Notes: generated by a model not told the origin, from the sequence alone. A stretch of 31,966 nt of DNA from an uncultured Thermococci archaeon (GCA_964516825.1 CAZFAR010000002.1:1-31966), one strand, 5' to 3'. Counted from the stretch's first letter, positions 8,926 through 30,272 are shown. Program-made: numbers and translations.

Positions 8926-8941
8926 TGTTACACGTGTAACA
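8926..8941. repeat. 16-bp perfect palindrome TGTTACACGTGTAACA (parS-like), copy 1
   Basis: Read directly; identical copies at 11215 and 30256, one-mismatch copy at 12173. Confidence 0.9.
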
Positions 8942-9038
8942 ATTCCTAGTCTGAAGCTGCAGTCAAAATGTAAGAAAGCTGCAGATAGGTCGGCAAGAAT
9001 TGGTGAAGTGATCCTGAGGCTTTTCCAGTCCTTCGACA

Positions 9039-9209
9039 TCATGCTCGTCCAGAGGCTTGCTCTACGATCATACTGTCTTCAGATTCCTCGAGAACAAAAA
9101 TCACCTTTTCCAGGAAATCCTGCCATGTGGCGCAGCGCAGCTTTCCTTTCCACTCTACAACCTTGAAGTAGAGATTATCTGGTATGTTCTTGAATGTTAT
9201 ATTTTTCAT
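9039..9209 (-). CDS. 56-aa ribbon-helix-helix-like DNA-binding protein, not in the ORF track (MKNITFKNIPDNLYFKVVEWKGKLRCATWQDFLEKVIFVLEESEDSMIVEQASGRA)
   Basis: Hand-translated. GAGGT SD and its own promoter at 9305-9322. An alternating beta-strand (KNITFKNI) + PD turn + two amphipathic helices, as in Arc/CopG/FitA-type RHH proteins. Confidence 0.7.
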   Translation of the reverse strand: MKNITFKNIPDNLYFKVVEWKGKLRCATWQDFLEKVIFVLEESEDSMIVEQASGRA

Positions 9210-9304
9210 GTTTTACCTCTTCTTGTCCGGTATGTTCATGCCAAGGAAAATATCACTTTCCTTAACATTCCACCTTTGCATGCTTTAACACTTTTAACAA
9301 TTAT

Positions 9305-9322
9305 CCTTTATAAGCTTTTCGG
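9305..9322 (-). promoter_or_regulatory. BRE-TATA promoter for the RHH-like gene
   Basis: Minus strand reads CCGAAAAGCTTATAAAGG. Plus-strand TTAACA direct repeats at 9262, 9285 and 9294 lie just downstream of it. Confidence 0.65.
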
Positions 9323-9398
9323 TCAATTTTTGATGGGTTTGAAGAATCCATATATGGTAAAGAAAAATGAGTAATTGGTGAATTGATGATCACGTTTC

Positions 9399-9848
9399 TT
9401 ATATCTCGGCCTCTGCCACTGCTTTTTCCAAAACTAATTCGTATTTCTCCATCATGCGCTGAACTGCAGGAAGTGGAGCATCCAGCTTCTGGGCAATCTC
9501 TTCGGCAGACAGACCTTTCTTAAATAGATCGAGAAAGGCTTTCTCACGAATATAATTGGTCTTTAGTGCCAATCTCTGCCTTCTGTAGTTCACAGCAGCC
9601 TGCGTAGCCCCCAGTGCTTCACCGATTTCCCGATCAACTGACCCCTGATTGTACAAGTTCCGCAATTCATCATCAGAAAAGCTCTTCTTCATGTAGTTAT
9701 TTTTCAATCCCATCTTTTGACGACGATAGTTCACAGCAGCCTGCGTCACGCCAAGTGTGTCAGCAATTTGTCTATCAGTCAGCCCTTCTTGATGAAGCTC
9801 CAAAAGCTGTTCATTCGAAAACTTCAGCATGCACCCCTGTGCACTCAC
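9399..9848 (-). CDS. Tandem helix-turn-helix protein (two near-identical HTH repeats plus a third degenerate one); likely true start is the ATG at 9830
   Basis: FSNEQLLELHQEGLTDRQIADTLGVTQAAVNYRRQKMGLKNNY aligns with FSDDELRNLYNQGSVDREIGEALGATQAAVNYRRQRLALKTNY. A third unit reads GLSAEEIAQKLDAPLPAVQR. GGGGTG SD before 9830. Confidence 0.8.
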   Translation of the reverse strand: MSAQGCMLKFSNEQLLELHQEGLTDRQIADTLGVTQAAVNYRRQKMGLKNNYMKKSFSDDELRNLYNQGSVDREIGEALGATQAAVNYRRQRLALKTNYIREKAFLDLFKKGLSAEEIAQKLDAPLPAVQRMMEKYELVLEKAVAEAEI

Positions 9849-9979
9849 CCGTATAAAAACATTTCCTCATAGGTTATCTCTGACCATAAGGGATAAGGGA
9901 TTGTAGCAGCAGTTAGAAAAGACGGTCGCAGACACAGAGAATCCAGCACAGAATGAGTTGTGGCTGAAAAGCTGGCAGT

Positions 9980-10017
9980 TTATCCACCGCTTATCCAGAG
10001 TTATCCACCGCTTACCC
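9980..10017 (+). repeat. Helically phased direct repeats: TTATCCACCGCTTAYCC x2 (21-bp period), i.e. four TTAYCC units
   Basis: TTATCC at 9980, 9991 and 10001, TTACCC at 10012; spacings are 11, 10 and 11 bp. Confidence 0.75.
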
Positions 10018-10093
10018 GATTACGTGCATCTGAAAGAATCCTTGTGACCTGTGAAAAGACATGTATCACTGTGCCTCTCATTTCTTCTACGTA

Positions 10094-11167
10094 CTATTCA
10101 GAGGTGAGAAACTCCTTCAAAGCAGAACCAACCAGCTTCAACAGGAAAGAATTTCTCAGAAATTCATTCAATAGGGAAGTGTGCCTCTCAAAGTCTGCTA
10201 TGTCCTCAATGATATCAGTATTCTCCTTGAAGATTCTGAAAACTCTCTCAAGATTCTTCTCATTCAATCCTTCATAGATTCTTCGCAGCCGCAGCCCTGC
10301 CCTGATCTCTCTCCCAAATTTCTCTCTCCATTCATTCTCGTAGGCAGAAAGATCATCCAAGTGCTCAACAGCGATTTCTGCAGCCTTCATGCCAAAGAAG
10401 ATTCCTCCACCTGTTAACGGCTTTATCTGACACGCTGCATCCCCTAGCAGGGCCACCCTCCTTCTGGCAATACTCCCGTACCCCAATGAGATGACACCTG
10501 CCTGTTTATCAAGAATTCTGCCTTTGATTTCTTTCCGTTCAATGAACCTTTCCAGTTCGTGGACAGGGTCTGCACCCAGGAATCCGATGCGCATGGTTTC
10601 CTCTGTCTCTGGTATTGACCAAAAGAAAAAGGGCGGATGCACATGAAGTTCCAGAAAATCATCCTCAGGAGCTGTTTGAACGATATACTGAGCTCCAGGG
10701 TAAAATTTGGCCTTCAGTGCAAAAGCTCCCATTTTCCGTATTACAGAAAAAGGTCCATCACAGCCCAAAAGAAGATCACACCAATATGTCCCCCTTTCTG
10801 TTACCACTTCAATAGTATCATGTTCTTCGAATTCAATGACTCTCTCCCCTGTACGTATATCTAGCCCCCTTGAAAGTAATTTGTCTAACCTGGCTCTATC
10901 CAAGACGTATGCAGCTCTTGCTCTCTCAATCTCAAACGAATCATTTCCCAAAAAGAATCGAGCCCCATCGATCCGCCGTAGTATCACCTCTTCAGGAAAA
11001 GGGAGCTTTGATGTCTCCACAGTTTCCTTTCCAATGAGACCTGCGCACTGAACTGGCTTTCCAACTTCTGGATGCTCCTCAAATATGATGGGGTTGAACC
11101 CCTTCCTTCTGAGCAGCTGCCCGGTGTAGCATCCGACAATGCCACCACCTGCGATGATTATATCCAT
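10094..11167 (-). CDS. Geranylgeranyl reductase-family FAD-dependent oxidoreductase
   Basis: IIIAGGGIVG Rossmann motif, KPVQCAGLI, LLLGCDGPFS.IRK, VALLGDAACQIKPLTGGGI. Confidence 0.85.
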   Translation of the reverse strand: MDIIIAGGGIVGCYTGQLLRRKGFNPIIFEEHPEVGKPVQCAGLIGKETVETSKLPFPEEVILRRIDGARFFLGNDSFEIERARAAYVLDRARLDKLLSRGLDIRTGERVIEFEEHDTIEVVTERGTYWCDLLLGCDGPFSVIRKMGAFALKAKFYPGAQYIVQTAPEDDFLELHVHPPFFFWSIPETEETMRIGFLGADPVHELERFIERKEIKGRILDKQAGVISLGYGSIARRRVALLGDAACQIKPLTGGGIFFGMKAAEIAVEHLDDLSAYENEWREKFGREIRAGLRLRRIYEGLNEKNLERVFRIFKENTDIIEDIADFERHTSLLNEFLRNSFLLKLVGSALKEFLTSE

Positions 11168-11214
11168 TGCGACTAGCTGATCTTCTTCTTTTATGAACCT
11201 TTCTCCTCCTTGAC

Positions 11215-11230
11215 TGTTACACGTGTAACA
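11215..11230. repeat. 16-bp palindrome TGTTACACGTGTAACA (parS-like), copy 2
   Basis: Perfect copy, intergenic between the KaiC-like and GGR-family genes. Confidence 0.9.
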
Positions 11231-11357
11231 TCCGGCAGTGTCTGTGGCTCCTCTTCAGTAATGGTATTCAGAACATCCAGATAAATGGGGCTGGTAAGTC
11301 TTTTGATGAACCCACAATTGAATCACTGCTGCCATAAATGCTTCTATGATGGAGGCA

Positions 11358-12104
11358 TTAGATGATTCTTTCAGTTGTTTCCACCACGAGTCCTTCTTCG
11401 CTGATAATGTATGGGATCAACTTGGTAGAGAAGATCATGTTTCGCAGTTTCTGAATTCGCATCGTATGTTCAAGTTCGGAGCCTCTCTCCCTCGTGGAGA
11501 ACTCAAAGATGCCATCTGCCAGGTACAGAAGAGTGTTAACCAGGCGCTCCTCATGCACCCCCCTATCCAATATGAAGAAATAGATTCCTCCATACCTGCG
11601 AGCTGCTATCTGAATGATTTCGAAGAGGTCAACCACATCCTCAGGATTTTCTGTACGCATTAAAGAGGATAAGGAATCAATAATGACTCGTATCTGGGCT
11701 ACATGGCTGCTGGCAAATCTCTCCAGGTACTTGGTAAGAACCATTCTCAACTGATTTGAAGGACCAACATCCCACACCAATTCCTTGAGGATATCCAGAT
11801 CTGTTGAGTAGCTCTTCTCATATTTGGTAGTATATGCATCGATAAAAATCAACTGCTTTTTTTTCACGTACTCGTCCACATTCCAGTTATAGAACTTCAT
11901 ATCTTCTACAATTTCCTCACCAGGTCTCTCGGAAGTGAAATAGATGCCATGAGCTCCCAACACGAGTCCCGAATAAAGGAATTGCTGAGCAAAAACACGG
12001 ATTCCTGTACCAACAGGCCCGTGCATGATGATAGCGGTCTTATCTGGAAGACCTTTATCCATAATTATGTCGAATCCTTTGATTCCAGTTTTGAAATACT
12101 CCAT
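11358..12104 (-). CDS. KaiC/RAD55-like RecA-superfamily ATPase with a degenerate Walker A; likely start is the ATG at 12104 (MEYFKTGIKG)
   Basis: KTGIKGFD..MDKGLP, GIYFTSE, FIDAY, RVIIDSLSSL (Walker B), DGIFEF, MRIQKLR are typical. The P-loop reads GPVGTGIR. A TATA-like TTTTTATTA lies about 25 bp upstream of 12104. Confidence 0.85.
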   Translation of the reverse strand: MEYFKTGIKGFDIIMDKGLPDKTAIIMHGPVGTGIRVFAQQFLYSGLVLGAHGIYFTSERPGEEIVEDMKFYNWNVDEYVKKKQLIFIDAYTTKYEKSYSTDLDILKELVWDVGPSNQLRMVLTKYLERFASSHVAQIRVIIDSLSSLMRTENPEDVVDLFEIIQIAARRYGGIYFFILDRGVHEERLVNTLLYLADGIFEFSTRERGSELEHTMRIQKLRNMIFSTKLIPYIISEEGLVVETTERII

Positions 12105-12172
12105 AGTATTGCAGGCGTACAAGATAATAAAAAGGTTTCCTCTGTCTGTAAGTGTCCGCCCAACCATGTCAC

Positions 12173-12188
12173 TGCTACACGTGTAACA
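12173..12188. repeat. parS-like palindrome copy 3, TGCTACACGTGTAACA (one mismatch)
   Basis: 15/16 match; upstream of the likely true KaiC-like start. Confidence 0.85.
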
Positions 12189-12301
12189 TTTGACCTTCTT
12201 CGCAGAGGTTGACATTTTCTCCCAAAAAGATAGAAGAGCAATCTCCTGGAATGACTGTCTGAGTAAGAGCTTGAAGAGTGATCAAAAAATAGAAGGAAGG
12301 T

Positions 12302-15300
12302 CTATTCTTTTTTCTTCAACACATCTCTTGGACTGAATTCATCTAGTAAATCGATTTCATTGTTCTTTTCTTCTTCATCTTCCTTTTTTTCTTCCTTTCT
12401 TGATCCTTTGAGAAGCTCTTTGATATCTGGTATCTCGAATTCTTCTTCTTTCTTCTCCCATTTTGGAAGTTCTGATACTGGTTCCTTTCTCTTTTCTACT
12501 TCTTCTTTTCTCACTCCTCTGAGAATTTCTCGAACATCTGTGAATCCTGTTCTCTCTGGCTTCTCTGATTTTTCCTCTTCAAACAGATCTTCAAGGCCCA
12601 GTTCCTCTTTCGTGATGTCCCTCGGCGCAAATTCCCTTTCAAGGCTGAATTCCTCTGACTCTTTACCGAATTCGAACTCTTCAGCCTTTCTGACTCCTGT
12701 TTCTTCTGGTTCCAGTAGCTCATGGACATCTCTGACCTTTGCAACCCTTTCCACTTTCTCTTTCTTCTCCTCAATTGTCTCCCGTCTCCTTCTCAGGACA
12801 TCCAGGGGAGTCACTTCTTCCATTGCTTCTGCCTTTTCTTCAGGGGAGGGCAGAGCTGGCTTCCTGATTTCCTCTTTCCAGATTTCTTTCCCCTCTACAG
12901 GTGTTGGGGGAAGTTCCTCTGGTGCATATGTCTCCTCTTCTGTCCGTCTTCTTTCAATGAGAAGGAAGGCCAGCATCATGCTGATGGCCATGATCAAAAA
13001 GATGATCAAGATCAGGGTAATGTCAAAGGACCTGGCCAGTCTCTGTGCTATTGTTTCCACTGCTTTCTTTGCTTCCTCTGTTGGAATCTTTTTCTCTTCT
13101 TCTGGCGGCTTCATTTCCTCTACTGCAACAGAAACAGGTTCTGACATGGATTCATGCTTATCATTATACACATCGATGAAGGTGGCTTTGGCTGCACCAA
13201 GGTTGAAGCTTCCCTGAGCTGTAGGCTTTAGCGAGTAGGTGAACGTTATTTCTTCTCCTGGGTTCAAGACTCCAATGTTCCAGCTCGTTTCGCCTTCCAG
13301 CACAGTAAACTCCTCGGGGACCCAGTCCTTGACGACTACATTGGTCGCCCTTTCATCATAGGTATTAGTTACCCGGACTGTGATCACGACTGCTTCACCC
13401 ACTTTCAGGGTAGCCATATCTGCAGTCTTTTCTATCAGGATCCCCTTGACCCTCAATAGAGCAGGCTCAGATCCTGCAGTGTAGACAATTTTCCATTTGT
13501 CCTCGTAGGTAGCAGTAGCTGCAGGAAGGAGAAGGCTTCCCACCCGTGTACACAGCATCTCGTAGAGGATCTGGGCAGATTCTCCTGGCTCTAGCTTGCC
13601 TTCCCATTCATTTGTTCCTGATAGGAGTACCATTCCCTCAGGCAAAGGATCGACCAGGTGGGTAATTGCAGGAATTTCGCCCTCGTTGATCACGTTGACT
13701 GCAACCTTGACAGAGAAGTTCAGCTTTACATCGCTTTTCTCCACCACCTTGGTGATCCTCAGATAAGGTTTTTGGGCCTTGACATCGAATTTTCCCTTTC
13801 TTTCTGCAGAATATTCGCGATCAAAATCATCGGAGTAGATTGCATTGAATGTCAGCTCATAGGTTTTGTCCTGGCTGAAATGAGGGACTTTAATCGTGTA
13901 CTTTATCACTAGTTCCTCTCCAATACCTACTTCATCAGCGAACAGGGTAATGCCGCCTCCTTCCTGGAGATAATCAGTAGAAACTTCCAGGAGCTGTGCT
14001 CCTTCAGGTAGAGCTGTCCTTACCTTTATTTCTTTGGCTGAAATCCCCCCCATGTTGGGGAGCGTGAGTATCACAGTGATGTATTCTCCATCTAGATCTA
14101 CCTGCCGTTTGAAACTGTAGTCTATCGTCAGATTGGGAGATTCAGTCTCCGGAATCATTACAGTCTGATCCTCTGCTACTACTTCCTGCTTCACTCCATC
14201 CCCATTCTCATAGGCTATCCTCACTCCCTTGAATGTGTACTTGCCTGCCTTCTCTCCTGCTCTTAGAGTGTACTTCAACAAGATGTACTTTTCTGGCTTC
14301 AGCTCGTCGATGTAGTACCTGATTGTACCTTCTTCCTCTTTCAATCCCTTGGTTTCCAGTTTTTCTACTGTGAAGCCCTCAGGTAAAATATCTACGACCT
14401 GGATGTGTTCTAGGGGATTTGATGTATCATTTTCTACTCTGATGACTACTGTTAAAGTGTCTCCCTTTGCAACAACATCAGAATCGAGTTCACGGTGAAG
14501 TGCTGGACCTGGCTCTGTTATCACCCTTATCTCTGTAGTATTGCTGACAGCCTCATATACATGGCCCCTCTCATCCTTGTAGAAGATTTTACCCTTGAAT
14601 TGATAGATGCCAATCTGTTTTACTTTGATCTTGTAGGTAACTTTGACCACATCTCCAGGCTTTAGAGTACCCATCCATTCTGCATGCCCTTCAATGACTT
14701 CCAGTCCCTGGGGTATCTGATCTATGTAGTGAACCTGCTTTATTTCTTCTTCTGACAGATTCTTGATGAAAGCCACTATAGTTCGCTCCTCACCCACTCG
14801 CATGTCTGCTATTTCTTTTCCTGTTTCTTTTACCACAGACTTGCCTTCGACTATGTTTTTCTGTAGATCAATATTGGCTCTTCTCTGGGGGAGTACATTC
14901 AAGTAAGCAGTTTTTGTGTCTGCTTTAGTTTCCAGTCCATCAGAATAGGTTATCCTCACCTTTATGGGAAATGATGTTTCTTTGGAGACTGAAGGTGCTT
15001 TCATCAAGAAGAGAAGACCTGCCTGTTCTCCAGGGCCGATTTCCAGGATTAGGTGTTTATCCAAATTGTATACCCAGGTCACATCTACTGGATTGAAATC
15101 TGGTGCGTCCAGCTCATAAGCAATTTCAGATGCAGTCCCATCTCCATCATTTCTCAAGAGAACGTGAGCCAGGAAGGTATCATCCGAGTAGATCTGAGAA
15201 ATTCCCGTACTCATGGAAACCTCTTCCAATATGCCCCAGTAAACATTCATGTCTATGTCAGGTTTCACTCTGGTGTGCAAATGGAAACGGGCAGATCTAT

Positions 15301-19191: not shown

Positions 19192-19214
19192 ACATCATTA
19201 ATGCTAATCGACAC

Positions 19215-19230
19215 TATATAAATCTTTCGG
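19215..19230 (-). promoter_or_regulatory. BRE-TATA promoter CCGAAAGATTTATATA for the wHTH/surface-protein operon
   Basis: Canonical archaeal BRE+TATA, positioned for a near-leaderless transcript starting at 19191. Confidence 0.8.
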
Positions 19231-19298
19231 TAAGAAAGGATGAATTACCAACTATTCTCATAGTAGATTATCAGGGTTGAGCTAATACTGTACGGGAA

Positions 19299-19393: not shown

Positions 19394-20704
19394 ATGGCTT
19401 ATTATCCTGCGCTAAGTGAAGATATCTATTTTGGAGTAGCCAAATTTCCACAGGGTTCACTGGTGAAAATTAGGAACACTTCGACACAAAGGGAATTCAA
19501 ATCCACACCTGCGACTGTTGACTTGCTCAGTCTCTGTTCCGGCACCAGAAGCGTGGCAGACATTATTCACTTCCTCTCACAGCAATCTGGCGAACCAGTT
19601 GAATCATTGACTCTTGAGGTGGAGAGGATTTTGGAAAAACTCCAGGTAAGAGGAATCATCAGCCTCAATGAGACCCCTCATGCGGGGCCTTGTGTCAAGA
19701 GAATAAAGGTGAAGTACCCTCTCCAGTTTGCCCAGGTTGAAATTACCAACAGGTGCAATCTTTCATGCATACACTGCTTCAACGACTCAGGGGATCCGCA
19801 TCCTCACGAGTTGACAACAGCAGAGATACTCTCCACTATCGATGTCATCTCCTTGATGGGCGCAGATAGCATCGTGATAACTGGCGGTGAGCCTCTGATG
19901 CATCCCGATCTCTTTGAGATTGTGGAACATGCCAGGAAAGCCCCCATGACCGTCTCAATATTCACTAATGGCACCCTGATGACAGAAGAGCATGTAAGGA
20001 AGTTCAGAGCATTGAATGTCAGAGGATTCAATATTAGCATTGACAGCGTAGATGAGAACATTCACGATACATTCAGAGGACAGAAGGGAGCATTAAGAAA
20101 GACATTGAAAGCTGTTCAGTTGCTAAGAGAAGCAGGGTTTCAAATCAAGATATCTGTTTCCTTGTGTCAGAACAACAAGAACCGTGTGGTTGAAATACTG
20201 CAGTACTTCAAAGAGAACAGTCTAACGAGTTTTGGATTTATGCCTGTCACCTCATCAGGGAGAGGCATTGAGGGTCTGGCCATTTCTCCGGAAGAGTGCT
20301 ACTATATCTGGGTGGAACTGCTTACGTACCTCAAGGAAGAATTCCCTGAGGCTCTTACTGCAATAAGGGGAGACATGGCAGAGACATGCAGCATAGCCAG
20401 AGATCTCATCGGCATCAAATCTGATGGTACCATTATCCCCTGTCCGGGGTGTAGCAGATCATTGGGTGTGGGGAATGTGAGAAATGTGAATCTTGAGGAG
20501 TTCTGGGATAGAAATGCAACTCTCGAAGCCCTCAGACAGATAACAGTGAAAGAAGATGAAAAGTGCAAGGAATGCGTGTATCTTACGTTCTGCGTGGGAT
20601 GCATTGCATCTGCTCACACCACAAGCGGAGAACTCAAACGTTACTACCCCTACTTGTGTGCTTCACGCAGAGCATATGATGAGGTCATAGGACTGACAAA
20701 GTGA
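19394..20704 (+). CDS. Radical SAM/SPASM peptide maturase with a fused N-terminal PqqD-like RiPP recognition element (RRE)
   Basis: N-terminal TVDLLSLCSGTRSVADIIHFLSQQSG...EVERILEKLQVRGII (PqqD-like wHTH). CNLSCIHC (CxxxCxxC), ITGGEPLMH, FTNGTL, SIDS. SPASM region CSIARDLIGIKSDGTIIPC...GNV...CKECVYLTFCVGC...YLC. Confidence 0.92.
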   Translation: MAYYPALSEDIYFGVAKFPQGSLVKIRNTSTQREFKSTPATVDLLSLCSGTRSVADIIHFLSQQSGEPVESLTLEVERILEKLQVRGIISLNETPHAGPCVKRIKVKYPLQFAQVEITNRCNLSCIHCFNDSGDPHPHELTTAEILSTIDVISLMGADSIVITGGEPLMHPDLFEIVEHARKAPMTVSIFTNGTLMTEEHVRKFRALNVRGFNISIDSVDENIHDTFRGQKGALRKTLKAVQLLREAGFQIKISVSLCQNNKNRVVEILQYFKENSLTSFGFMPVTSSGRGIEGLAISPEECYYIWVELLTYLKEEFPEALTAIRGDMAETCSIARDLIGIKSDGTIIPCPGCSRSLGVGNVRNVNLEEFWDRNATLEALRQITVKEDEKCKECVYLTFCVGCIASAHTTSGELKRYYPYLCASRRAYDEVIGLTK

Positions 20705-20784: not shown

Positions 20785-20790
20785 AAATCT

Positions 20791-20895
20791 CTAACCAAAG
20801 AATGCGAAGCCAGGCCCCACATAGATACCATCAATGTAACAAGAAATGGGGTGCTTCGGGGTTACTTCTTCAAGTTCTTCGATTTCGAAATCCAT
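20791..20895 (-). CDS. 34-aa putative RiPP precursor peptide MDFEIEELEEVTPKHPISCYIDGIYVGPGFAFFG, not in the ORF track
   Basis: Hand-translated. GAGGTGA SD 6 nt upstream, own consensus promoter at 20930-20944 and T-tract terminator. Acidic leader plus Cys/aromatic/Gly-rich core. Lies 86 bp from the 3' end of the RRE-rSAM gene. Confidence 0.8.
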   Translation of the reverse strand: MDFEIEELEEVTPKHPISCYIDGIYVGPGFAFFG

Positions 20896-20929
20896 GTTTC
20901 TCACCTCGCTTTTATTCTGTGTACTAATC

Positions 20930-20944
20930 TTATAAATCTTTCGG
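20930..20944 (-). promoter_or_regulatory. BRE-TATA promoter CCGAAAGATTTATAA for the precursor peptide
   Basis: First 14 nt identical to the 19215-19230 promoter; about 35 bp upstream of the ATG. Confidence 0.8.
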
Positions 20945-21074
20945 TTTCGTTCGTTGTCTTGTTGCACATTTTCTTGTCAAATACTATATTTGATGTATTG
21001 AAAATATAGGGTCACCCACAACCTACTCCTCAGCCAAAGCTTGAAGAAGCCTGTAACAGATCAAGACCGATTGA

Positions 21075-21608
21075 CTACTCTTTTCTCACTGCAAAGAGCT
21101 GATGGCAGTGAGGGCACTTATAGGTACCTGGTCTTGTTATTGAGAGCCGAGCTTTGCAGGAAGGACAGACAATATTCTTCTTCTCTCTCTTCTTGACATC
21201 TTCCTCTCTGATCAATCTGCCGTCTGGATACCATATGGGGAACTGTTTGCATCGAAATGGATCGGCCTGCCAGGGATGTTCTCCCTCGAATTCTTGCCGA
21301 TTCAGCGTGGGATGCTCCTTGCCGCAGTAGGGACAGGTCACCAAAGAGTACTCCTTCCAGAACCAAAAAGCTTCCTTCACTGTACGAGAGGGAGCACATT
21401 CCGTGCATATCAGGCGATCAATTTTCCTGCACCAGCAGATCTGCTCAAAAAAGTGTGGCTTTCTGCAATGATCACACACAAATATATCATCATCATCCCA
21501 GGCGTGCCATGTACATCTACCTGATGTCTTACCAAAGACTGCATCCCGTGGGGGATATGATTTGTCCACAGTTCCCGTGATTTTACAGGTGAAACATTCC
21601 ATAGTCAA
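21075..21608 (-). CDS. Cys-rich multi-zinc-finger/zinc-ribbon protein (177 aa), coupled to mer
   Basis: Six CxxC pairs (CFTC, CDHC, CTEC, CPYC, CPSC, CPHC) plus further Cys/His. 4-nt overlap with the upstream gene stop. Confidence 0.7.
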   Translation of the reverse strand: MTMECFTCKITGTVDKSYPPRDAVFGKTSGRCTWHAWDDDDIFVCDHCRKPHFFEQICWCRKIDRLICTECAPSRTVKEAFWFWKEYSLVTCPYCGKEHPTLNRQEFEGEHPWQADPFRCKQFPIWYPDGRLIREEDVKKREKKNIVCPSCKARLSITRPGTYKCPHCHQLFAVRKE

Positions 21609-22702: not shown

Positions 22703-22867
22703 TATCCAGGGAGACAAAGCATAGGACTGTGCTCCCTCTTTATCCAGGGACAGCTGCAGGAATGCTTTGCCTCCACTAGTAGAATTTCAGGATACATTTC
22801 TGGAAGAGTCTCTCTTTCAATAATGCTACATCAGAATGATTTATATTACTCATTGCGTTATCTTGAA

Positions 22868-22883
22868 CCGAAAGATTTATATA
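22868..22883 (+). promoter_or_regulatory. Orphan consensus promoter CCGAAAGATTTATATA pointing toward the 3' end of pan
   Basis: 16/16 identical to the 19215-19230 promoter; no substantial plus-strand ORF follows. Confidence 0.6.
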
Positions 22884-23057
22884 CTATTGATTAATTGTAT
22901 CAGTGCGCCATATCCTTTTCTTTTTTTCTCTTTTTCAATGGACTATCAAAAGCACAATAAATGATAATAGCAGCAATAGAACAACAATAAAGAGCATTGG
23001 TGAAATGGTACGTGTCAAGAAAAGCTGAAGAGCATCAGAACGCAAGGCATATACAGA

Positions 23058-24263
23058 CTATCCATAGATCAATCCAGAATCAGCATCCTTCTCTTCATAA
23101 GATCCCAATACCTTTTCACATGCATTGATGAGATCTTCTTCTTCTATGCAATCTCTCTTTTCCCGTATGGCAAACATTCCTGCTTCTGTACAGATAGCTT
23201 TCAAGTCTGCTCCTGAAGCATTTTCTGCTGCTTCTGCTATTTCTTCGAGATTCACATTGTGCAAGTTCATATTCTTGGTATGAATCTTCAGAATCTCCAG
23301 CCTGCCTTTCTTACCAGGCAGGGGCACCTCGATCAATCGATCAAACCGGCCTGGCCTTAAGAGAGCAGGATCCAGAATATCTGGTCTGTTGGTGGCAGCC
23401 AGCACTTTCACATTTCCTTTAGGATCGAACCCATCCATTTCGGACAAAAGCTGCATCATAGTGCGGTGCACCTCTCTGTCACCTGAGACCTCTGAATCAA
23501 AGCGCTTGGAACCTATGGCATCGATTTCATCAATGAAAATGATGCTGGGATTCTTCTCTCTTGCGAGCTGGTATACTTCCCTGACGATGCGCGCACCTTC
23601 CCCAATGAATTTGCGGACAAATTCAGATCCCACCACTTTGATGAAGGTGGATTCTGTCTCACAAGCCACTGCTTTTGCTAACTGGGTCTTTCCGTTTCCT
23701 GGAGGACCGTACAGAAGAATACCTGAAGGCGGATCAATGCCCACCCTTTCAAAAAGCTCAGGATGCTTCAATGGAAGCTCAACTGTCTCTCTGATCTCCT
23801 CAATTTGCTGTTCCAGTCCGCCAATATCCTTGTACGTTACATCAGGCTTCTGTACAATCTCCATGCTAGTTACTGCTCGATCTCTGCTGAAGGGGAGGAC
23901 TTCAATAATGGAGAGTGTTCTCTGATTCATAGCGACCCTGCAGCCTACTACAATGTCTCTTGTACTGACGAAATGGGAGACATTCACCACATAGTTTGGA
24001 CCAGAAGAACTCTTGACTACCACTCTCCCGTCCACCAGCACATCTTCCACGACTGCAGTGATCAGTGGAGGGGACCTGAGGCGATCCAGTTCTTTCCGCA
24101 ATTCCATGTTCTCACGTTCCAGCCGAACAAGTTCAGTCTCTGTATTGCGTTTCTGCAGCTCCAGGCTCTTGATACGTCTCTGAAGATTCCTCAAGTACGT
24201 TTCTGTTTCGACGTGATCTGCTTCACGCCTGTCCGCATCCTCATACCTCACCTGAGATGACAT
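23058..24263 (-). CDS. pan: Proteasome-activating nucleotidase (AAA+ ATPase)
   Basis: N-terminal coiled coil, OB domain ([24 protein letters not shown]), GPPGNGKT, pore loop [38 protein letters not shown]-terminal HbYX (IYG). Confidence 0.97.
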
Positions 24264-24386
24264 GAATTTCCTCCCTTTTATGTAAAAGCATTATCTACTG
24301 ATATTGTTGCACCCCTTTATAAAGTTTTTGGTTAATGCTATTGATTAGCAAAAAGTTTAATAAGGTTTCCACCAGAATCTTATACA

Positions 24387-24833
24387 ATGATGTGCGAAAT
24401 ATGCGGAAGGCCAATAAAAGGGAGAGGAATAGAGATCTTTGTGGAAGGAGCGAAACTGACTGTTTGTAATAATTGTGCTCGTCATGGTACGCAGGTAAGA
24501 GAAAAACCGAGAGCATCCAGTCAGAGATCTGTTCTTCCTTCCAAGAAAGCCAATCTCGATGTTAAGGAGGATTATCCTTCAATCATCAGAAAAGCTAGAG
24601 AAAAGCAAGGATTGACCCAGAAAGATCTCGCCAGACAGATCAATGAGAAAGAATCGGTGATCCACAGAGTAGAAACAGGACACATGAGACCTTCTCCTCG
24701 ATTAGCCCAGAAACTGGAAGGGGTACTTGATATCAAACTTCTGGAAGAACTGGAAGAACCAGAGATTGCCCACAGGAGAAGCCACTCTGATGAGCTCACC
24801 ATCGGGGACATAATCAGGATAAAGAAGAAGTGA
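24387..24833 (+). CDS. mbf1: Archaeal multiprotein bridging factor 1 (Zn ribbon + HTH)
   Basis: CEICG...EGAKL.VCNNCA.HG; IRKAREKQGLTQKDLARQINEKESVI.RVE.G.MRP; LTIGD. Divergent from pan, a known archaeal gene context. Confidence 0.93.
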   Translation: MMCEICGRPIKGRGIEIFVEGAKLTVCNNCARHGTQVREKPRASSQRSVLPSKKANLDVKEDYPSIIRKAREKQGLTQKDLARQINEKESVIHRVETGHMRPSPRLAQKLEGVLDIKLLEELEEPEIAHRRSHSDELTIGDIIRIKKK

Positions 24834-24842
24834 GAAGGGACT

Positions 24843-25004
24843 ATGAAAAAGAAAGGAATTCTTGTTTGCTTGAAGTGCAGAAGCCCCCGGCTGAAGAGGA
24901 AGGCCCATATCCTGGGCATCATACCAGGATCTTCCTACGTCTGTTCAGACTGCGGGTTTGAGAGCCCGATAATGCTTGAGATCTTCCCAGACACTGAATC
25001 CTAG
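24843..25004 (+). CDS. 53-aa zinc-ribbon protein MKKKGILVCLKCRSPRLKRKAHILGIIPGSSYVCSDCGFESPIMLEIFPDTES, not in the ORF track
   Basis: Hand-translated. CxxC...CxxCG; starts 9 nt after the mbf1 stop; its TAG shares a CTAG with the stop of the convergent FKBP gene. Confidence 0.8.
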   Translation: MKKKGILVCLKCRSPRLKRKAHILGIIPGSSYVCSDCGFESPIMLEIFPDTES

Positions 25005-25777
25005 GCTTTTTCTATCTGTACCACCCAGACTGTGTAGTGGATTGTCTCTCCTGCCAGCAGGGGATTGAAGTCCACAAGCATAGCGTCTTCTCTGATCTCG
25101 ATCACTCTGCCCTGTCCGTAATAGGCAGAATACACTGTATCACCCAGAGAAGGGGTCAAAGTGATCTCATACTCAGTCTCAGTCTCTCCAGTAACGGTGG
25201 CACTTCCCAGAAGAAGTTGAATTTCCTGCCCTATTTCAAGTTCATAGACGAATCGCACTGTATCCTCTGCTACCTCCTTCACCAGAATTGTCAGGTCCTG
25301 CAATTGATACTGTTCGTCTGGCACTGGATCTTTCTGGAGTCTCTGCTTGAACTCATCAACGGAGACTTTTTCTTCCTTGTTCAGCGTCTGAAGCAACTGG
25401 ATTTCTTTGATCTTGTCAGGATTTCTCGATCCATAGGCTCTTTCAGGAGGGATTGCAACCTCCTTTCTTTCTCCCTCGCGCATTCCGATCAGCGCCATCT
25501 CAAGATCAGGTGGAAGGGTTCCTTCGCCTATAACAACTTTCAGGGGTTCATAAGATGCTCTGAGCCTGAACCACCAGATTTTGGGCTGTGCATCGTCCAT
25601 TGCCACCTCCTCGAGGGTTGTATCAATGATCTCTCCCGTATCCAGGTAGATTGTGTAGTTGATCAAGACAGTGTCTCCAACTTGTACAGTCTTGTAGAAC
25701 TTGAGAAAGTAGATACTTATTCCTGCTACAATGATGATAGCGAACACAATAATTATGTATAGTCTTTTGATGCTCAT
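25001..25777 (-). CDS. FKBP-type peptidyl-prolyl isomerase (SlyD/archaeal long-type-like with insert domain) carrying an N-terminal membrane anchor
   Basis: TM segment LYIIIVFAIIIVAGISIYFL; VQVGDTVLINYT..L.TGEIIDTT; GMREGE.KEV.IPPERAYG; VDFNPLLAGETIHYTVWVV. Confidence 0.9.
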   Translation of the reverse strand: MSIKRLYIIIVFAIIIVAGISIYFLKFYKTVQVGDTVLINYTIYLDTGEIIDTTLEEVAMDDAQPKIWWFRLRASYEPLKVVIGEGTLPPDLEMALIGMREGERKEVAIPPERAYGSRNPDKIKEIQLLQTLNKEEKVSVDEFKQRLQKDPVPDEQYQLQDLTILVKEVAEDTVRFVYELEIGQEIQLLLGSATVTGETETEYEITLTPSLGDTVYSAYYGQGRVIEIREDAMLVDFNPLLAGETIHYTVWVVQIEKA

Positions 25778-25978
25778 GATGGGTGTGTCTTTGCGTGTCT
25801 TAAAAATCTTGTGGTTTGAAGGCAGATCTTATCATTATTGGCTGCACCAGTGAAAGCTTTAGTGTCTTATATGTGCATGGTCTGAAGCAGTTTCTGGATA
25901 AGATAAGCAGGCCCCTGTTGACAGCCATGAGAACTGGATATGAAAAGGAATACGAATATCTCAAGGCGATCCCAGAAA

Positions 25979-26150
25979 ATGACATCGCTTATCAGTAGTA
26001 GTTGAAAAAGATGAAGGTGGATATTTTGTATTCTGTCCCAAACTCCAAGGTTGTCATTCGCAGGGAAATATGTGTGAAGAGGCTCCGAGAAACATTGGAG
26101 ATGCGACAAGGCTCCACATAGAGGACAGGCGAAGAACTATCAAGGGGTAA
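25979..26150 (+). pseudogene. HicB-family antitoxin remnant, frameshifted just after the start codon
   Basis: Frame from 25986 reads RLSVVVEKDEGGYFVFCPKLQGCHSQGNMCEEAPRNIGDATRLHIEDRRRTIKG*, a HicB signature. The ATG at 25979 is out of frame, with an in-frame TGA at 25980. Confidence 0.75.
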
Positions 26151-27171
26151 AATCACTCTTTAATAGCTTGATGCAGTTATAAATCAATTCTACGTCGTTC
26201 TGCAGGTTTATTCCTATCTTTCCCACTTTTTCCAACTTTAGCAATAATTTTCTCCCAATCTTGGAGCAACACTTTATCTCCCAAAAATATGCTATTCTCA
26301 TCGCATCCTCATGAAAAAATGATATACCATCTCTATGTATCACAAAAAAATGACATCTTCCAGTCTCTTCATCTGACATTAATGCAAGTCCATAGCTTTC
26401 AGGATGCGCTTCCTCTAATATGTTGAACTCTTCACGAAGTTGTCCTATTTCTCCCCTTGTTACCCTCACTGGAATTCTATGCAGCAAATCCCCTGTATTT
26501 CTCAATTCAAGGTTGGGAATTCCTTCAATTGGAATTTCCATATTATTTCTTAAGAAATTAGTAAAAGACACTCTGTGATAGCGTTGGATATCTTCATTGA
26601 AGGAAAAAATTATTCTGGACAGTCTTTCGATTTCTTCTGAGCAAATTCTATAATCTTCTTTCAAAATTTCAATTTTCTCCCCAATTTGTGTTCCTGAATA
26701 GAGTCCTCTTCCTATTTCATCAATTATCCTCTCCTTTCTGTGTCTTTTCTCTTGAGTATACCAACGGTTAATCTGGTCGTATTTAAAATCCCCCACGTAA
26801 TCAGGCATAGTGCTTCTTCTAAAACGGATGCTGTCCAGGTCCTTTAGGGTTCTATATCCTGAACTATAGAGTCTCAGTACTGTTTTTTCTCCTATGCCAA
26901 AAATGTCATCAATTTTACTTATCGAAGTATTTCTTAACTCCAAATCTAGTATTTCGTTAGATAGTATATCTTCCAATCCAAATATTTGATCTTTCTTGCT
27001 TTTGCGCTCTTTGATTTCTCTTTTTCTTCTGTTAATGTATATTCTATACTCAGATTTGAAGAGTCTGTATTCCTGACATTCTTCTGTCCAGTAGTACTCA
27101 AGAAATCTGTACAAGAAATAGCATACAACAGCAGTTGTGAATAATAAACCCCATGGGATTTGCAGCGTCAT
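26140..27171 (-). CDS. AT-rich hypothetical protein with an N-terminal TM segment and a helix-hairpin-helix motif
   Basis: WGLLFTTAVVCYFLYRFL; IDDIFGIGEKTVLRLYSSGYRTLKDL (HhH-like); long open frame. Confidence 0.6.
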   Translation of the reverse strand: MTLQIPWGLLFTTAVVCYFLYRFLEYYWTEECQEYRLFKSEYRIYINRRKREIKERKSKKDQIFGLEDILSNEILDLELRNTSISKIDDIFGIGEKTVLRLYSSGYRTLKDLDSIRFRRSTMPDYVGDFKYDQINRWYTQEKRHRKERIIDEIGRGLYSGTQIGEKIEILKEDYRICSEEIERLSRIIFSFNEDIQRYHRVSFTNFLRNNMEIPIEGIPNLELRNTGDLLHRIPVRVTRGEIGQLREEFNILEEAHPESYGLALMSDEETGRCHFFVIHRDGISFFHEDAMRIAYFWEIKCCSKIGRKLLLKLEKVGKIGINLQNDVELIYNCIKLLKSDFTP

Positions 27172-27497
27172 TCTATCACTTCCTCTGTCCTTTTCTGCAG
27201 CATGGTATATTTCCTGATGCCATTTGGTGAAAGATGTATAAAAAACTTTCCCTAACTAACGATGGTGAACAACAGTGATAATGCTGTTACACTAAATTCT
27301 CTTGTGCCATAGAACAGTGAGTATCACGAGGAATACGACAAATACAAATACCAAATACCACAAAGATTAAAAGGAAACACTACTTTATACAAATAGAGAG
27401 GTAAGACAATGACCAAGATGTGGTCAGAAATTTATGTGGTTCTCTTGAATTGGGAAAGTGAGAAAAGGAGGAATGCTTATTGTGTTTGGGAGAGCTC

Positions 27498-28181
27498 ATG
27501 AATTGGTTCAAGTCTTTTTTTCAGTTTTATAAGAGAATTAGAAGAACGTTTGGACGTAGAATTGCCAATGCTATAATTCTATTAATTAGTTTCCCACTTA
27601 TGTTCATATTGGCACTCATTGCAGTAGTCGTCTATGAGACTCTGCAGGTCCTTGGGTGGGGTCCTATTCTCTTCTGGATTTCGGTACTTGCTCTCGCAGT
27701 CTTCTTCATTAAGAGACTTGCTCAAAAACAAGGGAACGAATTAACAGATTATCACATTCCTGAAACAGGACGAAGAGATGTTCCTAAGACTCACTGTGAG
27801 AAGTACTTGCATTGCCTGAGCGCTAACATATTGTGTGGAACATGTGCAAGAACCAAGGAAACAGGAATCTCTATCTCTAAGGATGAGTACTTGCCAGAAC
27901 GTGATAGCCTATTCAACCTACATGAACCGAGACGTCGACCTCCACTTTCAGTTGAAAAAATGAAAGAACCTACTGAGGAATTAGGACAGCTACGAAGAGG
28001 TCATGAGGAAGATTTACCTAAGACAGAATTATCTATCAAGATGATTACAAGATGTCATGAATGTCCAGAATTTGAGAAAAAAAGAGGGAGATTTGGATAC
28101 TGTAGATTTCTTAACATGAGTATTAGTGATAACCATCTGGCCTGTGAAACAATGAGGAATTATGTAAAGGCCAACGATTAA
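27498..28181 (+). CDS. Hypothetical membrane protein with two TM helices and C-terminal Cys clusters (likely ATG at 27498; the track starts at TTG 27480)
   Basis: Hydrophobic AIILLISFPLMFILALIAVVVY and PILFWISVLALAVFFI; CEKYLHC...CGTC and CHEC...C.F...C. Confidence 0.55.
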   Translation: MNWFKSFFQFYKRIRRTFGRRIANAIILLISFPLMFILALIAVVVYETLQVLGWGPILFWISVLALAVFFIKRLAQKQGNELTDYHIPETGRRDVPKTHCEKYLHCLSANILCGTCARTKETGISISKDEYLPERDSLFNLHEPRRRPPLSVEKMKEPTEELGQLRRGHEEDLPKTELSIKMITRCHECPEFEKKRGRFGYCRFLNMSISDNHLACETMRNYVKAND

Positions 28182-28385
28182 TTATGTAGAGGTTAACGAT
28201 TATCTACATAGCAAGCTTGGATAAAGGATCAACCAAATATCGATAAGAGATTATACACTTCCTCACCGACATGGTTTCTCATGGAAGAAAAATGCTCTTT
28301 TCAATGGTGGTGATGGGAATCCCTTCCATGCCTGAGATGTGAACCATGTATATAATATAGTGCTTTCTCAAAATAACGTTGAAGT

Positions 28386-28412
28386 AAAAAAGGGGGACAT
28401 ATATATGTCCCT
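28386..28412 (-). terminator. Hairpin plus U-tract terminator after the 71-aa secreted peptide gene
   Basis: 18-bp perfect palindrome GGGACATATATATGTCCC at 28394-28411, followed on the minus strand by CCTTTTTT. Confidence 0.65.
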
Positions 28413-28440
28413 AGAATTGCTCTAAAAAGCACACCAAAAC

Positions 28441-28656
28441 TTACTCAAGCAGGCAGTTCGGAACTGGGGGCGGTCCATCAGGACGACTCAGCAGCCAAAC
28501 AAAGAGATCTCTCAGCCACTGTAGCCATTCTGTCAGTTTACACTCCTGAATGCCTGTAGACTCGCAGTCATCTGTACAGGGAGCTATCACTGGCCCAACA
28601 AAGCCTGTCATCAGCAGCCCTGCCACGACCAACATGAGGATCTTTCGGCTTCTCAT
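28441..28656 (-). CDS. 71-aa secreted Cys-containing peptide of unknown function
   Basis: Signal peptide MRSRKILMLVVAGLLMTGFVGPVIA; mature part has four Cys and a Trp-rich amphipathic helix; GGTGAT SD; promoter and terminator both visible. Confidence 0.7.
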   Translation of the reverse strand: MRSRKILMLVVAGLLMTGFVGPVIAPCTDDCESTGIQECKLTEWLQWLRDLFVWLLSRPDGPPPVPNCLLE

Positions 28657-28689
28657 TTATATCACCATGTCCTTTGAGGCAGACATAAT

Positions 28690-28703
28690 ATTTAAATATT
28701 TCG
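28690..28703. promoter_or_regulatory. Compact, probably bidirectional TATA region shared by the peptide gene and the divergent regulator
   Basis: Minus strand reads CCGAAATATTTAAATA. On the plus strand TTTAAATA lies about 25 bp before the ATG at 28720. The intergenic gap is only 63 bp. Confidence 0.55.
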
Positions 28704-28719
28704 GTTTTGAAAAGAGTAC

Positions 28720-29976
28720 ATGGTACGGCGGGACTTATCGACGAAGGAAAAACTGCTCCTTCAACTCATGGGGAACCAGCCTAATTTAACAAATAAAGAG
28801 CTGTGCGAAATCATAGGGTTCAAGTATGCCGAATATGTCTCCACACTCCAGAAAAAGCTTCAAAAAAGGGAATATTTTGATGGACCTCTGATGTTTGCTG
28901 ATTGGGGAAAGATTTTCAGAAATAGAGTTTCCCGAATCTATGCCTTTATCATGTTCGACATCTCCTACGACTCCATAAGAGCTTTGCTGCAGGAAGTTGG
29001 CTGCTGGTTCTACTTCTACCCACTTGAAGAGGGCGCTTTCCGCAAATACCTGGTAGTCTTCTTGAATACTGATACAGAAGAACTGAAGAGAGTATTTGAC
29101 TATCTCAAGAATAGTGGAATAATCTCCTACTACCATTTGTTTGAGCAGGAAGGAAAGCTGGGTGTAGTCAATCCCACCTTTCTCACAAATGGGAAGGATA
29201 CACCCATTCATCCCGATTTTGACCATCTCACGGAGGATGTTGATATTCCAGATTTGAGGTACGGTGCCTTTGCTGACATTTCCTTGAACAAGGTGGCCCA
29301 GCTCCTGATCATACACCTTTGGATGGGACGTGGTGGATGCGATCTCAGGAAGATAGTTCGGAAAGAAAATGAGTACAGAAAGGATCAGAGAACAGCTCTA
29401 AAAAAGATGCTGCGAGCAGAAAAACAGGAAGAAATGAGGGGAAAACTCAGGACAGAATTGAAAGAGTGGAAGGGAGATCTGCCTCTCAGAGAATTCAGAG
29501 AAGCTTATCAGCTGCTGGTTAGTCATGCTGTTCTGGAAAAGGTCTACTACGTGAACCCCTTCCCGCGCTCTATGTGCAGAGCTTTCATACTTCTGCTCAA
29601 GTGCAAATCTATTGAAGCGACAAATCGCATCATATTCAATTTCGGCAAAAATGTCAGAATATTCACCCGTTCATACATGCTCCAGTCCGTCGAGACAGGA
29701 ACATGGTACGGCGCAATCTATGCTGCAGGAGATCCTTTCCTTGAGGGAAAACTGATGAACAGCCTGGATCGGTGCCCTGAGATTGAAGACAGAAAATTGT
29801 TTCCTGTGCGCAGTTACCCTGCAAGCCATTGGGCAGCTCAAGGTATTCCTATCGAAGGATACTACGACCCAGAGACCCAAACCCTTGGCTATCCGTATGA
29901 CCTCTTTTATGAAAGAGTAAAGCAGAAAGTGGAAGAAGATTTCAATCAGAGGAGAGAAGCTAGAGCATTGGTATAG
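28720..29976 (+). CDS. 418-aa putative transcriptional regulator, Lrp/AsnC-like winged HTH, possibly a duplicated HTH-effector architecture
   Basis: LSTKEKLLLQLMGNQPNLTNKELCEIIGFKYAEYVSTLQKKLQKREYF HTH, followed by an alpha/beta segment. A second similar unit starts at LNKVAQLLIIHL, with a charged helical insert. Confidence 0.6.
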   Translation: MVRRDLSTKEKLLLQLMGNQPNLTNKELCEIIGFKYAEYVSTLQKKLQKREYFDGPLMFADWGKIFRNRVSRIYAFIMFDISYDSIRALLQEVGCWFYFYPLEEGAFRKYLVVFLNTDTEELKRVFDYLKNSGIISYYHLFEQEGKLGVVNPTFLTNGKDTPIHPDFDHLTEDVDIPDLRYGAFADISLNKVAQLLIIHLWMGRGGCDLRKIVRKENEYRKDQRTALKKMLRAEKQEEMRGKLRTELKEWKGDLPLREFREAYQLLVSHAVLEKVYYVNPFPRSMCRAFILLLKCKSIEATNRIIFNFGKNVRIFTRSYMLQSVETGTWYGAIYAAGDPFLEGKLMNSLDRCPEIEDRKLFPVRSYPASHWAAQGIPIEGYYDPETQTLGYPYDLFYERVKQKVEEDFNQRREARALV

Positions 29977-30182
29977 ATTGCCTCAAGAAGGTGTGCCTTT
30001 TCCTCATCCTCTGTCTCAGGGACCAATGCGGCTGAAGCAATCGTTCTCAATACCATGGCCTTGAGCATGGCTATTCTGAATTTTTCTACTTCCCCTTCAT
30101 CAACGGGGAGCCCTGCTGCTCGCATTTCCATTCTTATATTTTCTCTGTCAAGCTCTATCAGCTCCTCTTCGCTCATTTCCAT
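29946..30182 (-). CDS. 78-aa acidic helical hypothetical protein
   Basis: Strong GAGGTGA SD; BRE-TATA GCGAAAGATTAATAAA at 30214-30229; its 3' end overlaps the regulator's 3' end by 31 bp. Confidence 0.65.
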   Translation of the reverse strand: MEMSEEELIELDRENIRMEMRAAGLPVDEGEVEKFRIAMLKAMVLRTIASAALVPETEDEEKAHLLEAIYTNALASLL

Positions 30183-30254
30183 AGCATCACCTCTTCCTCA
30201 ATCTTCCGATCCCTTTATTAATCTTTCGCCCTCATTGCTGTCTCACCTTCGACT

Positions 30255-30272
30255 ATGTTACACGTGTAACAT
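30255..30272. repeat. parS-like palindrome copy 4, ATGTTACACGTGTAACAT (perfect 18-bp palindrome)
   Basis: Core at 30256-30271 is identical to copies 1 and 2. Confidence 0.9.

Follow-up and report, generated by a model that had tools for sequence, protein, structure and literature searches.

A parS-like palindrome in Theionarchaea and Hadarchaeota as a candidate docking site for a dimeric DNA-binding protein

A 16-bp palindrome, TGTTACACGTGTAACA, recurs in a 31,966-nt stretch of DNA from an uncultured Thermococci archaeon (GCA_964516825.1, CAZFAR010000002.1:1-31966), the whole of which is called the window below. The motif is a real, selected and lineage-restricted cis-element: its copies are non-coding, near-perfect and confined to certain clades, they adjoin defined promoters, and two of them have been kept amid diverged flanking DNA. 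It looks like a protein docking site rather than a demonstrated archaeal centromere. We read the 16-mer, tentatively and at a little less than an even chance, as the recognition site of a predicted high-specificity dimeric DNA-binding protein acting at promoters or transcription-unit borders. Binding by a protein, its dimeric state and its effect on transcription are what we infer.

Four near-identical copies lie outside genes

A pattern search of the window returned three exact copies of TGTTACACGTGTAACA, at 8926-8941 (site 1), 11215-11230 (site 2) and 30256-30271 (site 4), and one copy with a single mismatch, TGCTACACGTGTAACA, at 12173-12188 (site 3), the same four that had been listed in the first-pass annotation. 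Chance alone would give 0.07 matches at three or fewer mismatches, and the observed count of five was reached in none of 100 shuffles. The fifth match, at 21581, is not a motif site, because it has three mismatches and lies inside coding sequence, where it spells the M-E-C-F-T-C-K of a Cys-rich protein that is kept in relatives. When the scan was widened to five mismatches, the four copies at zero or one mismatch were followed by matches at three to five mismatches at chance level, with no degenerate tail. The 16-mer is the largest repeat family in the window, and its copies can be extended together by at most one base, to ...AACAT. Their flanks are otherwise unrelated, as claimed earlier, which speaks against a miniature inverted-repeat transposable element (MITE) or a longer repeat.

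All four sites (4/4) fall in non-coding DNA. Site 1 lies between a 56-aa open reading frame (ORF; 9039-9209, minus strand) and a C25-peptidase gene (5638-8472, minus strand), and site 2 between the stop codon of a gene for a KaiC-like ATPase (11358) and the start of a gene for a geranylgeranyl-reductase (GGR)-like flavoprotein (11167). Site 3 lies between the stop codon of a gene for a 2172-aa surface protein (12302) and the start of the KaiC-like gene (12104), so that sites 2 and 3 flank the latter, and site 4 is found upstream of a conserved 78-aa gene (29946-30182, minus strand), at the edge of a strain-specific segment. The ORF that runs over site 3 (11358-12215) is an artefactual N-terminal over-extension, the conserved KaiC-like start being ATG 12104 in orthologue alignments (A1, A3), and the ORFs whose coordinates overlap sites 1 and 4 (8897-9166 and 30055-30291) are without support. 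The earlier placement of the copies outside genes therefore holds once the KaiC-like start is fixed, and the distances from site to start codon, 48 nt to ATG 11167, 69 nt to ATG 12104 and 74 nt to ATG 30182, agree with the 48-74 bp previously given for three of the copies.

Conservation and distribution in archaea

The proteasome-activating nucleotidase of the window shares 85-91% identity with proteins that carry the name Theionarchaea archaeon, and by this measure the host is a Theionarchaea-like archaeon. L073 is a further locus of this very strain, with the same three sites, site 1 among them. The motif was also found in two diverged relatives, L074/L075 (GCA_975963375.1) and L076, whose GGR-like and KaiC-like proteins are 73-76% and 81% identical, respectively, to those of the window. 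In both, an exact copy precedes the GGR-like gene at the homologous place (L074 9954, L076 9894), with the partly conserved flanks AGACACT..[motif]GT(C/G)AA (alignment A4), and another exact copy precedes the KaiC-like gene in the same spacer as site 3 (L074 8987, L076 8922; A3). Because these exact copies persist in L074 and L076 while the spacers have otherwise diverged, the comparison indicates that the sites upstream of the KaiC-like and GGR-like genes are under selection. The order of genes around sites 2 and 3 does not change from genome to genome. In each of the two relatives one more copy precedes an AF_0843-family gene, and neither relative has a copy in the spacer equivalent to that of site 1.

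The distribution within Theionarchaea is patchy. Among other Theionarchaea loci with the same gene order, no copy at three or fewer mismatches was seen in L067-L072 and L174, and none at two or fewer in L077-L081 and L083. The spacer upstream of the GGR-like gene of L069 is just 33 bp long and motif-free, and the spacers orthologous to that of site 4 in L174, L067 and L069 have kept the promoter and lack the motif. Scanning about 800 kb of unrelated loci gave no match at two or fewer mismatches.

A wider scan, made with one genome per species, extended the distribution to a second lineage. Among the matches listed, from at least 66 loci, seven came from Hadarchaeota or Hadesarchaea metagenome-assembled genomes (MAGs) and three from unclassified archaea, and no other archaeal group was represented among them. 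The ten Hadarchaeota-type loci have no conserved neighbourhood and no recurring gene family. Sampling around dnaG revealed the same patchiness as in Theionarchaea: L169 has three sites in 14 kb and its relative L162 (DnaG 86% identical) has two in 21 kb, while this region is motif-free in H. yellowstonense, in a genome with a 1-Mb contig and in another lineage. The motif-free Hadarchaeota loci are L165-L168 and L171-L173. Counting second sites in loci that had been found through a first one, the density is about one site per 10-12 kb, which would amount to some hundred sites per genome if they were spread evenly.

The archaeal set comprises 29 non-redundant sites, of which 20 are exact and all 29 are non-coding, in host loci that are about 86% ORF. 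Most mismatches (8 of 13) fall in the central dinucleotide and the half sites are nearly invariant; the variants in Hadarchaeota-type loci, for example, differ only in the middle of the form TGTTACA-(CG/TA/CA/CC)-TGTAACA, with both half sites intact.

Promoters and gene ends at the sites

At three of the four sites in the window, the motif is tied to a core promoter made of a TFB-recognition element (BRE) and a TATA box, from which it is separated by 17, 34 or 39 nt. The GGR-like gene has the box GAAAGGTTCATAAAAG (11188-11203, minus strand), which ends 20 nt before ATG 11167, is common to L076 (A4) and leaves 17 nt between the motif end and TATA. The KaiC-like gene has GAAACCTTTTTATT (12126-12139, minus strand), located 21 nt before ATG 12104 and 39 nt from the motif end; it is invariant in eight aligned Theionarchaea, whether the motif is present or not (A1, A3). 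For the 78-aa gene the box is GGCGAAAGATTAATAAAGGG (30211-30230, minus strand), 34 nt from the motif end and identical in the window, L174 and L067, with the core CGAAAGATTAATAAAGG common to L069. Two of the three boxes are thus conserved in relatives that lack the motif. Motif centres fall at about -77 (KaiC-like), -72 (78-aa) and -56 (GGR-like) from the predicted start. Only some 20-30 nt separate the TATA box from the start codon at these three genes, which implies mRNAs that are leaderless or have short leaders.

The GGR-like promoter is of a CGAAAG-ATTTATA type whose boxes recur across the window (repeat families D8, I2 and I19). Copies of ACCGAAAGATTTATA(TA), in both orientations, were also noted at 19205-19231, 20931-20946, 22866-22893 and 28691-28705, and this sequence seems to represent the consensus of strong BRE/TATA promoters in the organism. 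The promoter assignment of site 1 is uncertain. Its only nearby box is a weak TATA-like sequence, TTTCAAATAAAG, about 23-24 nt away on the minus strand, which would put the motif centre near -63 only if the box is real; better BRE/TATA candidates lie about 200 nt away.

In Hadarchaeota the motif mostly follows a tract of five or six T residues and precedes an A-rich stretch, and it often lies 2-16 nt past a stop codon. Within one species the unit takes the form TTTTT-motif-AACAAAAA(T); the setting, with AACAAAAA as its A-rich stretch, is kept within a species, as in all three sites of L169 and in L014, L001 and L051. Some start codons come 18-28 nt after the motif (L001, L036, L162), and two or three sites lie between divergent genes. 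An apparent 'MSG...' gene following the motif in L066 and L038 is not a real ORF. In the window, site 3 is likewise behind T6 and T5 tracts, and it lies upstream of promoters.

A predicted dimeric binding protein

The reading that we prefer rests on how the motif varies. Because the centre varies while the half sites are nearly invariant, the 16-mer would be read by a dimer through its two 7-bp half sites, TGTTACA, leaving the central dinucleotide free. Because the sequence of the two arms is conserved, and not just their pairing, in genomes ranging from 37% to 61% GC, it is the sequence itself that is presumably recognised. The patchy presence of the motif is the pattern expected from a trans factor of patchy distribution, and the binder would be present only in some lineages, namely one Theionarchaea clade and part of Hadarchaeota. 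The sites lie in non-coding DNA at transcription-unit borders, where the bound protein would most likely activate or repress the downstream promoter from an upstream position. Another possibility is that it serves as a roadblock or insulator that stops read-through out of the preceding gene.

Both modes of action have parallels. The upstream activating sequence of Ptr2, the TrmBL1/Tgr motif TGM (TATCAC-N5-GTGATA) and the SurR site (GTTn3AAC) are palindromic dimer sites just upstream of archaeal BRE/TATA elements, are activating, and belong to degenerate sets that serve coherent regulons. They are placed much like the present motif at -56 to -77; their sequences are different, and the palindrome described here is near-invariant and has functionally unrelated neighbours. 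The stoperators of cluster A mycobacteriophages, asymmetric 13-14-mers, are dozens of near-identical intergenic repressor sites that halt transcription between units. They and other roadblock terminators resemble the Hadarchaeota placement past stop codons and T tracts. Stoperators are phage-borne and asymmetric, whereas the present sites are palindromes on cellular chromosomes.

Several observations sit uneasily with a dedicated promoter-acting regulator. The adjoining genes are housekeeping genes with no common function (they encode the KaiC-like ATPase, the GGR-like reductase, Ogg, DnaG, DNA ligase, adenylate kinase, UbiA, a tRNA endonuclease and VapBC, among others), so that no coherent regulon emerges, and all-or-none, near-perfect copies are unusual for an operator set that has evolved in place. 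The distance from motif to TATA is not fixed, being 39 nt at the KaiC-like gene of the window and about 100 nt in L074 and L076. Site 1 has no convincing promoter within 50 nt, one Hadarchaeota site (L066 6599) lies between convergent genes, and several others directly follow stop codons, as described above. Finally, no candidate gene for the binder was found among the genes near archaeal sites, and no DNA-binding gene recurs next to them. The first-pass annotation had offered a regulator operator as its alternative. The position of the motif 17-39 nt before BRE/TATA at three sites makes this the better fit to the window, but the lack of a coherent regulon and the L066 site between convergent genes count against it.

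The DNA-binding proteins encoded near the sites were considered as binders and rejected. Within the window these were a protein with three helix-turn-helix (HTH) repeats (9399-9848), a Zn-ribbon/HTH_3 protein (24387-24833), a 418-aa protein and the 56-aa ORF next to site 1, which resembles a ribbon-helix-helix protein by eye only and has no Pfam match; all have orthologues in motif-free relatives, and their presence there also counts against our preferred reading. The strain-specific 343-aa helix-hairpin-helix, 383-aa and TIR-domain proteins have no homologues in other motif-positive loci, and an HTH-LAGLIDADG protein of Hadarchaeota locus L162 has none in the window or in other motif loci.

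Relation to bacterial parS sites

The first-pass annotation had likened the motif to bacterial parS, and the likeness is close. The 16-mer agrees with the consensus of the parS sites bound by ParB/Spo0J, TGTTNCACGTGNAACA, at all 14 specified positions, a match that is unlikely to arise by chance. In an Acidobacteriaceae MAG (L020), rsmG is followed by ten TGTT[A/C]CACGTG[T/G]AACA sites, three of which are exact copies of the archaeal 16-mer, and then by parA and parB; a second bacterial locus (L037) has an exact 16-mer beside parAB. Judged by these neighbourhoods, the exact 16-mer is a genuine parS variant in bacteria. The Acidobacteriaceae array (L020 3381-6794) is a curiosity in its own right, since its ten sites lie within 1.4 kb between rsmG and parA, which is unusually dense, and A and C are mixed at position 5.

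Because the site equals a parS variant, a diverged ParB-type HTH protein is one candidate for the binder. In its full form this alternative holds that some Theionarchaea and Hadarchaeota acquired a ParB-family CTP clamp by horizontal transfer, probably as an orphan and possibly with altered base read-out. The clamp would load at bacterial-type parS sites at unit borders, locally about one per 10 kb, and the sites would serve as a centromere, as loaders of SMC, or for a KorB/Noc-like spreading silencer or nucleoid organiser. We regard this as unlikely, while taking it seriously. Like parS sites, the archaeal sites are perfect 16-bp palindromes that occur in near-perfect copies and local clusters, and all-or-none copies with a patchy phylogeny are typical of parS with a transferable ParB. 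In one Hadarchaeota species (L169), three sites lie within 11 kb of cdc6. An orphan ParB is conceivable, since canonical ParB architectures (CTPase, HTH and dimerisation domain) are scattered in archaea, rarely with ParA (PMC12704722). In the same account, however, archaea are regarded as lacking chromosomal ParABS.

Searches with phmmer and hidden Markov models of the window and of 473 kb of archaeal loci turned up no ParB, and a Pfam scan of window ORFs gave no PF02195. No ParA gene adjoins any archaeal site; the sole ParA-type match, a partial MinD/ParA-like ORF (L051 5154-5555), lies 1.5 kb from one. Another difference is in the mismatch profile, which is reversed between the archaeal sites and the bacterial and phage sites and suggests a different read-out. 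Bacterial loci together with a phage contig have 33 of 46 mismatches at position 5/12 and three at the centre, whereas the archaeal sites have none of 13 at position 5/12 and eight at the centre. Canonical ParB tolerates changes at position 5/12 and keeps the CACGTG core, and the archaeal sites do not show this; position 5/12 is fixed in them and the centre is variable. They also occur in an archaeal host and are intergenic without exception (29/29) and promoter-adjoining, and the ten Hadarchaeota-type loci do not share a neighbourhood. Clustering near cdc6, origin recognition box (ORB) elements or the GC-skew switch, an earlier suggestion, was not seen within the window, which contains no GC-skew switch, cdc6/orc1 gene or ORB-like repeat. 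Apart from L169, cdc6 is absent from the other motif loci as well, and the cdc6 regions of L165 and L166-L168 are motif-free. With no ParB detected in these loci, and with the reversed tolerance and the intergenic placement, the original inference of a centromere or SMC-loading site drew no positive support.

The KorB OB sites of plasmid RK2 and the NBS sites of Noc are a parallel in behaviour. They are many, perfectly conserved palindromes that lie at variable distances from promoters or are dispersed chromosome-wide, and the loose promoter spacing and all-or-none copies seen here are similar. This comparison is one of behaviour only, as the site sequences are unlike and no ParB-fold protein was detected here.

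The phage contig mentioned above (IMGVR_UViG_3300037423_000235; L157 1-13481, L161 1-6379) is a 23-kb tailed-phage contig with a terminase large subunit, an Amidase_2 lysin and 54% GC. It carries 18 TGTT[A/T]CACGTG[T/A]AACA sites, eight of them exact, mostly at short gene junctions, past stop codons or before ribosome-binding sites. A search of 20 kb of this contig gave no ParB, and the sites have the look of operators in use across the phage, akin to stoperators, or else of parS.

RNA, repeat and recombination readings

It is also conceivable, if quite improbable, that the motif is a dispersed repetitive extragenic palindromic (REP)-like element that works at the RNA or single-strand level, with a hairpin at 3' ends that stabilises or ends transcripts, and that it has possibly spread by copying. 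The copies are indeed near-identical, and in Hadarchaeota the usual setting after a stop codon and T5-6, before A-rich AACAAAAA, extends the palindrome in a manner conserved within species. One site occupies a 42-49-nt spacer inside an apparent operon (L036, L162) and another lies between convergent genes (L066). After each of the three single substitutions in the stem, a G.U pair can still form on the strand that carries the flanking genes, and L053 6085 has a compensatory pair, numbers too small to weigh. However, the 6-bp A/U-rich hairpin folds weakly, no better than shuffled sequence (z-scores from -0.5 to -1.9), and its stem sequence is invariant over two archaeal lineages of 37% to 61% GC, with almost no covariation. 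Even A7 and T10, which flank the loop, do not vary. Site 3, behind its T tracts and upstream of promoters, may not be transcribed at all. As for spread by copying, one copy does travel with a homing-endonuclease cassette (L162), but the window copies have unrelated flanks and neither terminal repeats nor target duplications nor a transposase, and comparison of L022 with L162 shows that the site is not a clean insertion (A5). No transposase or REP-associated tyrosine transposase (RAYT) was seen. Rfam and tRNA scans of the window found nothing, so that a known RNA family or tRNA is rejected, and there is no bacterial-type terminator at the sites.

It is very improbable that the motif is a target of site-specific recombination, with crossover at a 2-bp core, or of homing by a homodimeric LAGLIDADG enzyme. 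The strictly conserved arms with a variable centre (CG, TA, CA, CC or TG) recall serine recombinase crossover sites, sites 1 and 4 lie at the edges of strain-specific DNA, and in Hadarchaeota one copy is part of an inserted cassette, next to an HTH-LAGLIDADG gene. Yet about one such site per 10 kb would invite rearrangements, and gene order near sites 2 and 3 is stable; these two flank core genes without insertion, and the window has no recombinase or LAGLIDADG gene. The cassette itself (L162 15638-17954, also in L163 and L164) consists of a deoxyhypusine synthase gene followed by a motif variant (16958), a gene with HTH_23 and LAGLIDADG_3 domains, and a duplicated remnant of the synthase C-terminus, an arrangement that reads as the signature of a free-standing homing endonuclease.

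Two known operators were set aside. In a full-text literature search, the 12-nt core turned up only in the Lactococcus cop operator, and no such cis-element was returned for Theionarchaea or Hadarchaeota. The L. lactis copR operator, GTTTACACGTGTAAAC (PMC7253601), contains the cop box TACAnnTGTA of the CopY/CopR and BlaI/MecI winged-helix repressors. The central 12-mer, TTACACGTGTAA, and the TACA-nn-TGTA core are common to both elements, as is the free central dinucleotide, but towards the outside the half sites are shifted by one base (TGTTACA vs GTTTACA). No copper-homeostasis or bla genes lie beside the archaeal sites, and the scanned window ORFs include no PF03965. The bacterial 16-mers look like parS instead of cop operators; inspection of N-terminal sequences, in ORFs without a Pfam scan, revealed no CopY-type neighbours of the exact copies. 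The half site of the heat-shock regulator Phr, TTTnnTnnC, is similar to the motif with T flanks as it occurs in Hadarchaeota. Against Phr stand the spacer, N4 rather than N5, and the absence of the motif from hsp20, cdc48 and thermosome genes in the loci covered.

Other features of the window

The gene content bears out the earlier assumption of an archaeal chromosome. Besides the Theionarchaea-type nucleotidase and the C25 peptidase, the window encodes a luciferase-like oxidoreductase and very large surface proteins. The gene for the KaiC-like, RecA-superfamily ATPase (11358-12104, minus strand) matches Pfam PF06745 (E = 1e-33), and the GGR-like FAD oxidoreductase gene (10094-11167, minus strand), downstream of site 2, matches Pfam DAO and FAD_binding_3; homologues of its product carry the name digeranylgeranylglycerophospholipid reductase. 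The 149-aa protein with three tandem HTH repeats (9399-9848) is kept in all Theionarchaea loci examined, and its presence does not follow the motif. Its architecture is reminiscent of that of Cbp1, the repeat-binding protein of Sulfolobales.

Other parts of the window are specific to this strain or absent from relatives. A low-GC segment (25800-28700; GC 0.38-0.40) between an FKBP gene and the gene for the 418-aa protein is missing from relatives and is probably an insertion; it encodes the 343-aa helix-hairpin-helix protein (26140-27171, minus strand) and a 233-aa Cys-rich membrane protein (27480-28181, plus strand). A radical SAM/SPASM enzyme with a PqqD-like N-terminus (19394-20704, plus strand) occurs only in this strain and is adjoined by a 58-aa ORF (20791-20967, minus strand), with which it may form a peptide-modification pair of the kind that makes ribosomally synthesized and post-translationally modified peptides (RiPPs). 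At the left end of the window, a TIR-domain protein (10-552; TIR_2, E = 2e-32) may be the product of a defence gene, for which no partner gene was identified. The strain-specific segment beside site 4 (30309-31966) holds the 383-aa protein, which has no detectable family (30590-31741, minus strand), and a 64-aa ORF (30399-30593, minus strand) that is HicA-like by eye only, with no Pfam match.

Implications

Theionarchaea and Hadarchaeota are uncultured lineages that are available only as metagenomes. A near-invariant motif in two such lineages provides a handle for finding its binder by phyletic profiling or DNA pull-down, and the opposite tolerance profiles of the archaeal sites and of the bacterial and phage sites lend themselves to a direct test in vitro. 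A regulator or insulator, as we tentatively prefer, would act globally, at many housekeeping promoters. If the binder is instead a relative of ParB, the finding would overturn the view that archaeal chromosomes are without parS-type systems, and would bear on SMC or chromatin organisation in histone-bearing archaea. An orphan ParB clamp would then be the first archaeal chromosomal system of the parS-ParB type, and its role would be to silence, to insulate or to organise the chromosome, not to segregate it with the help of ParA.

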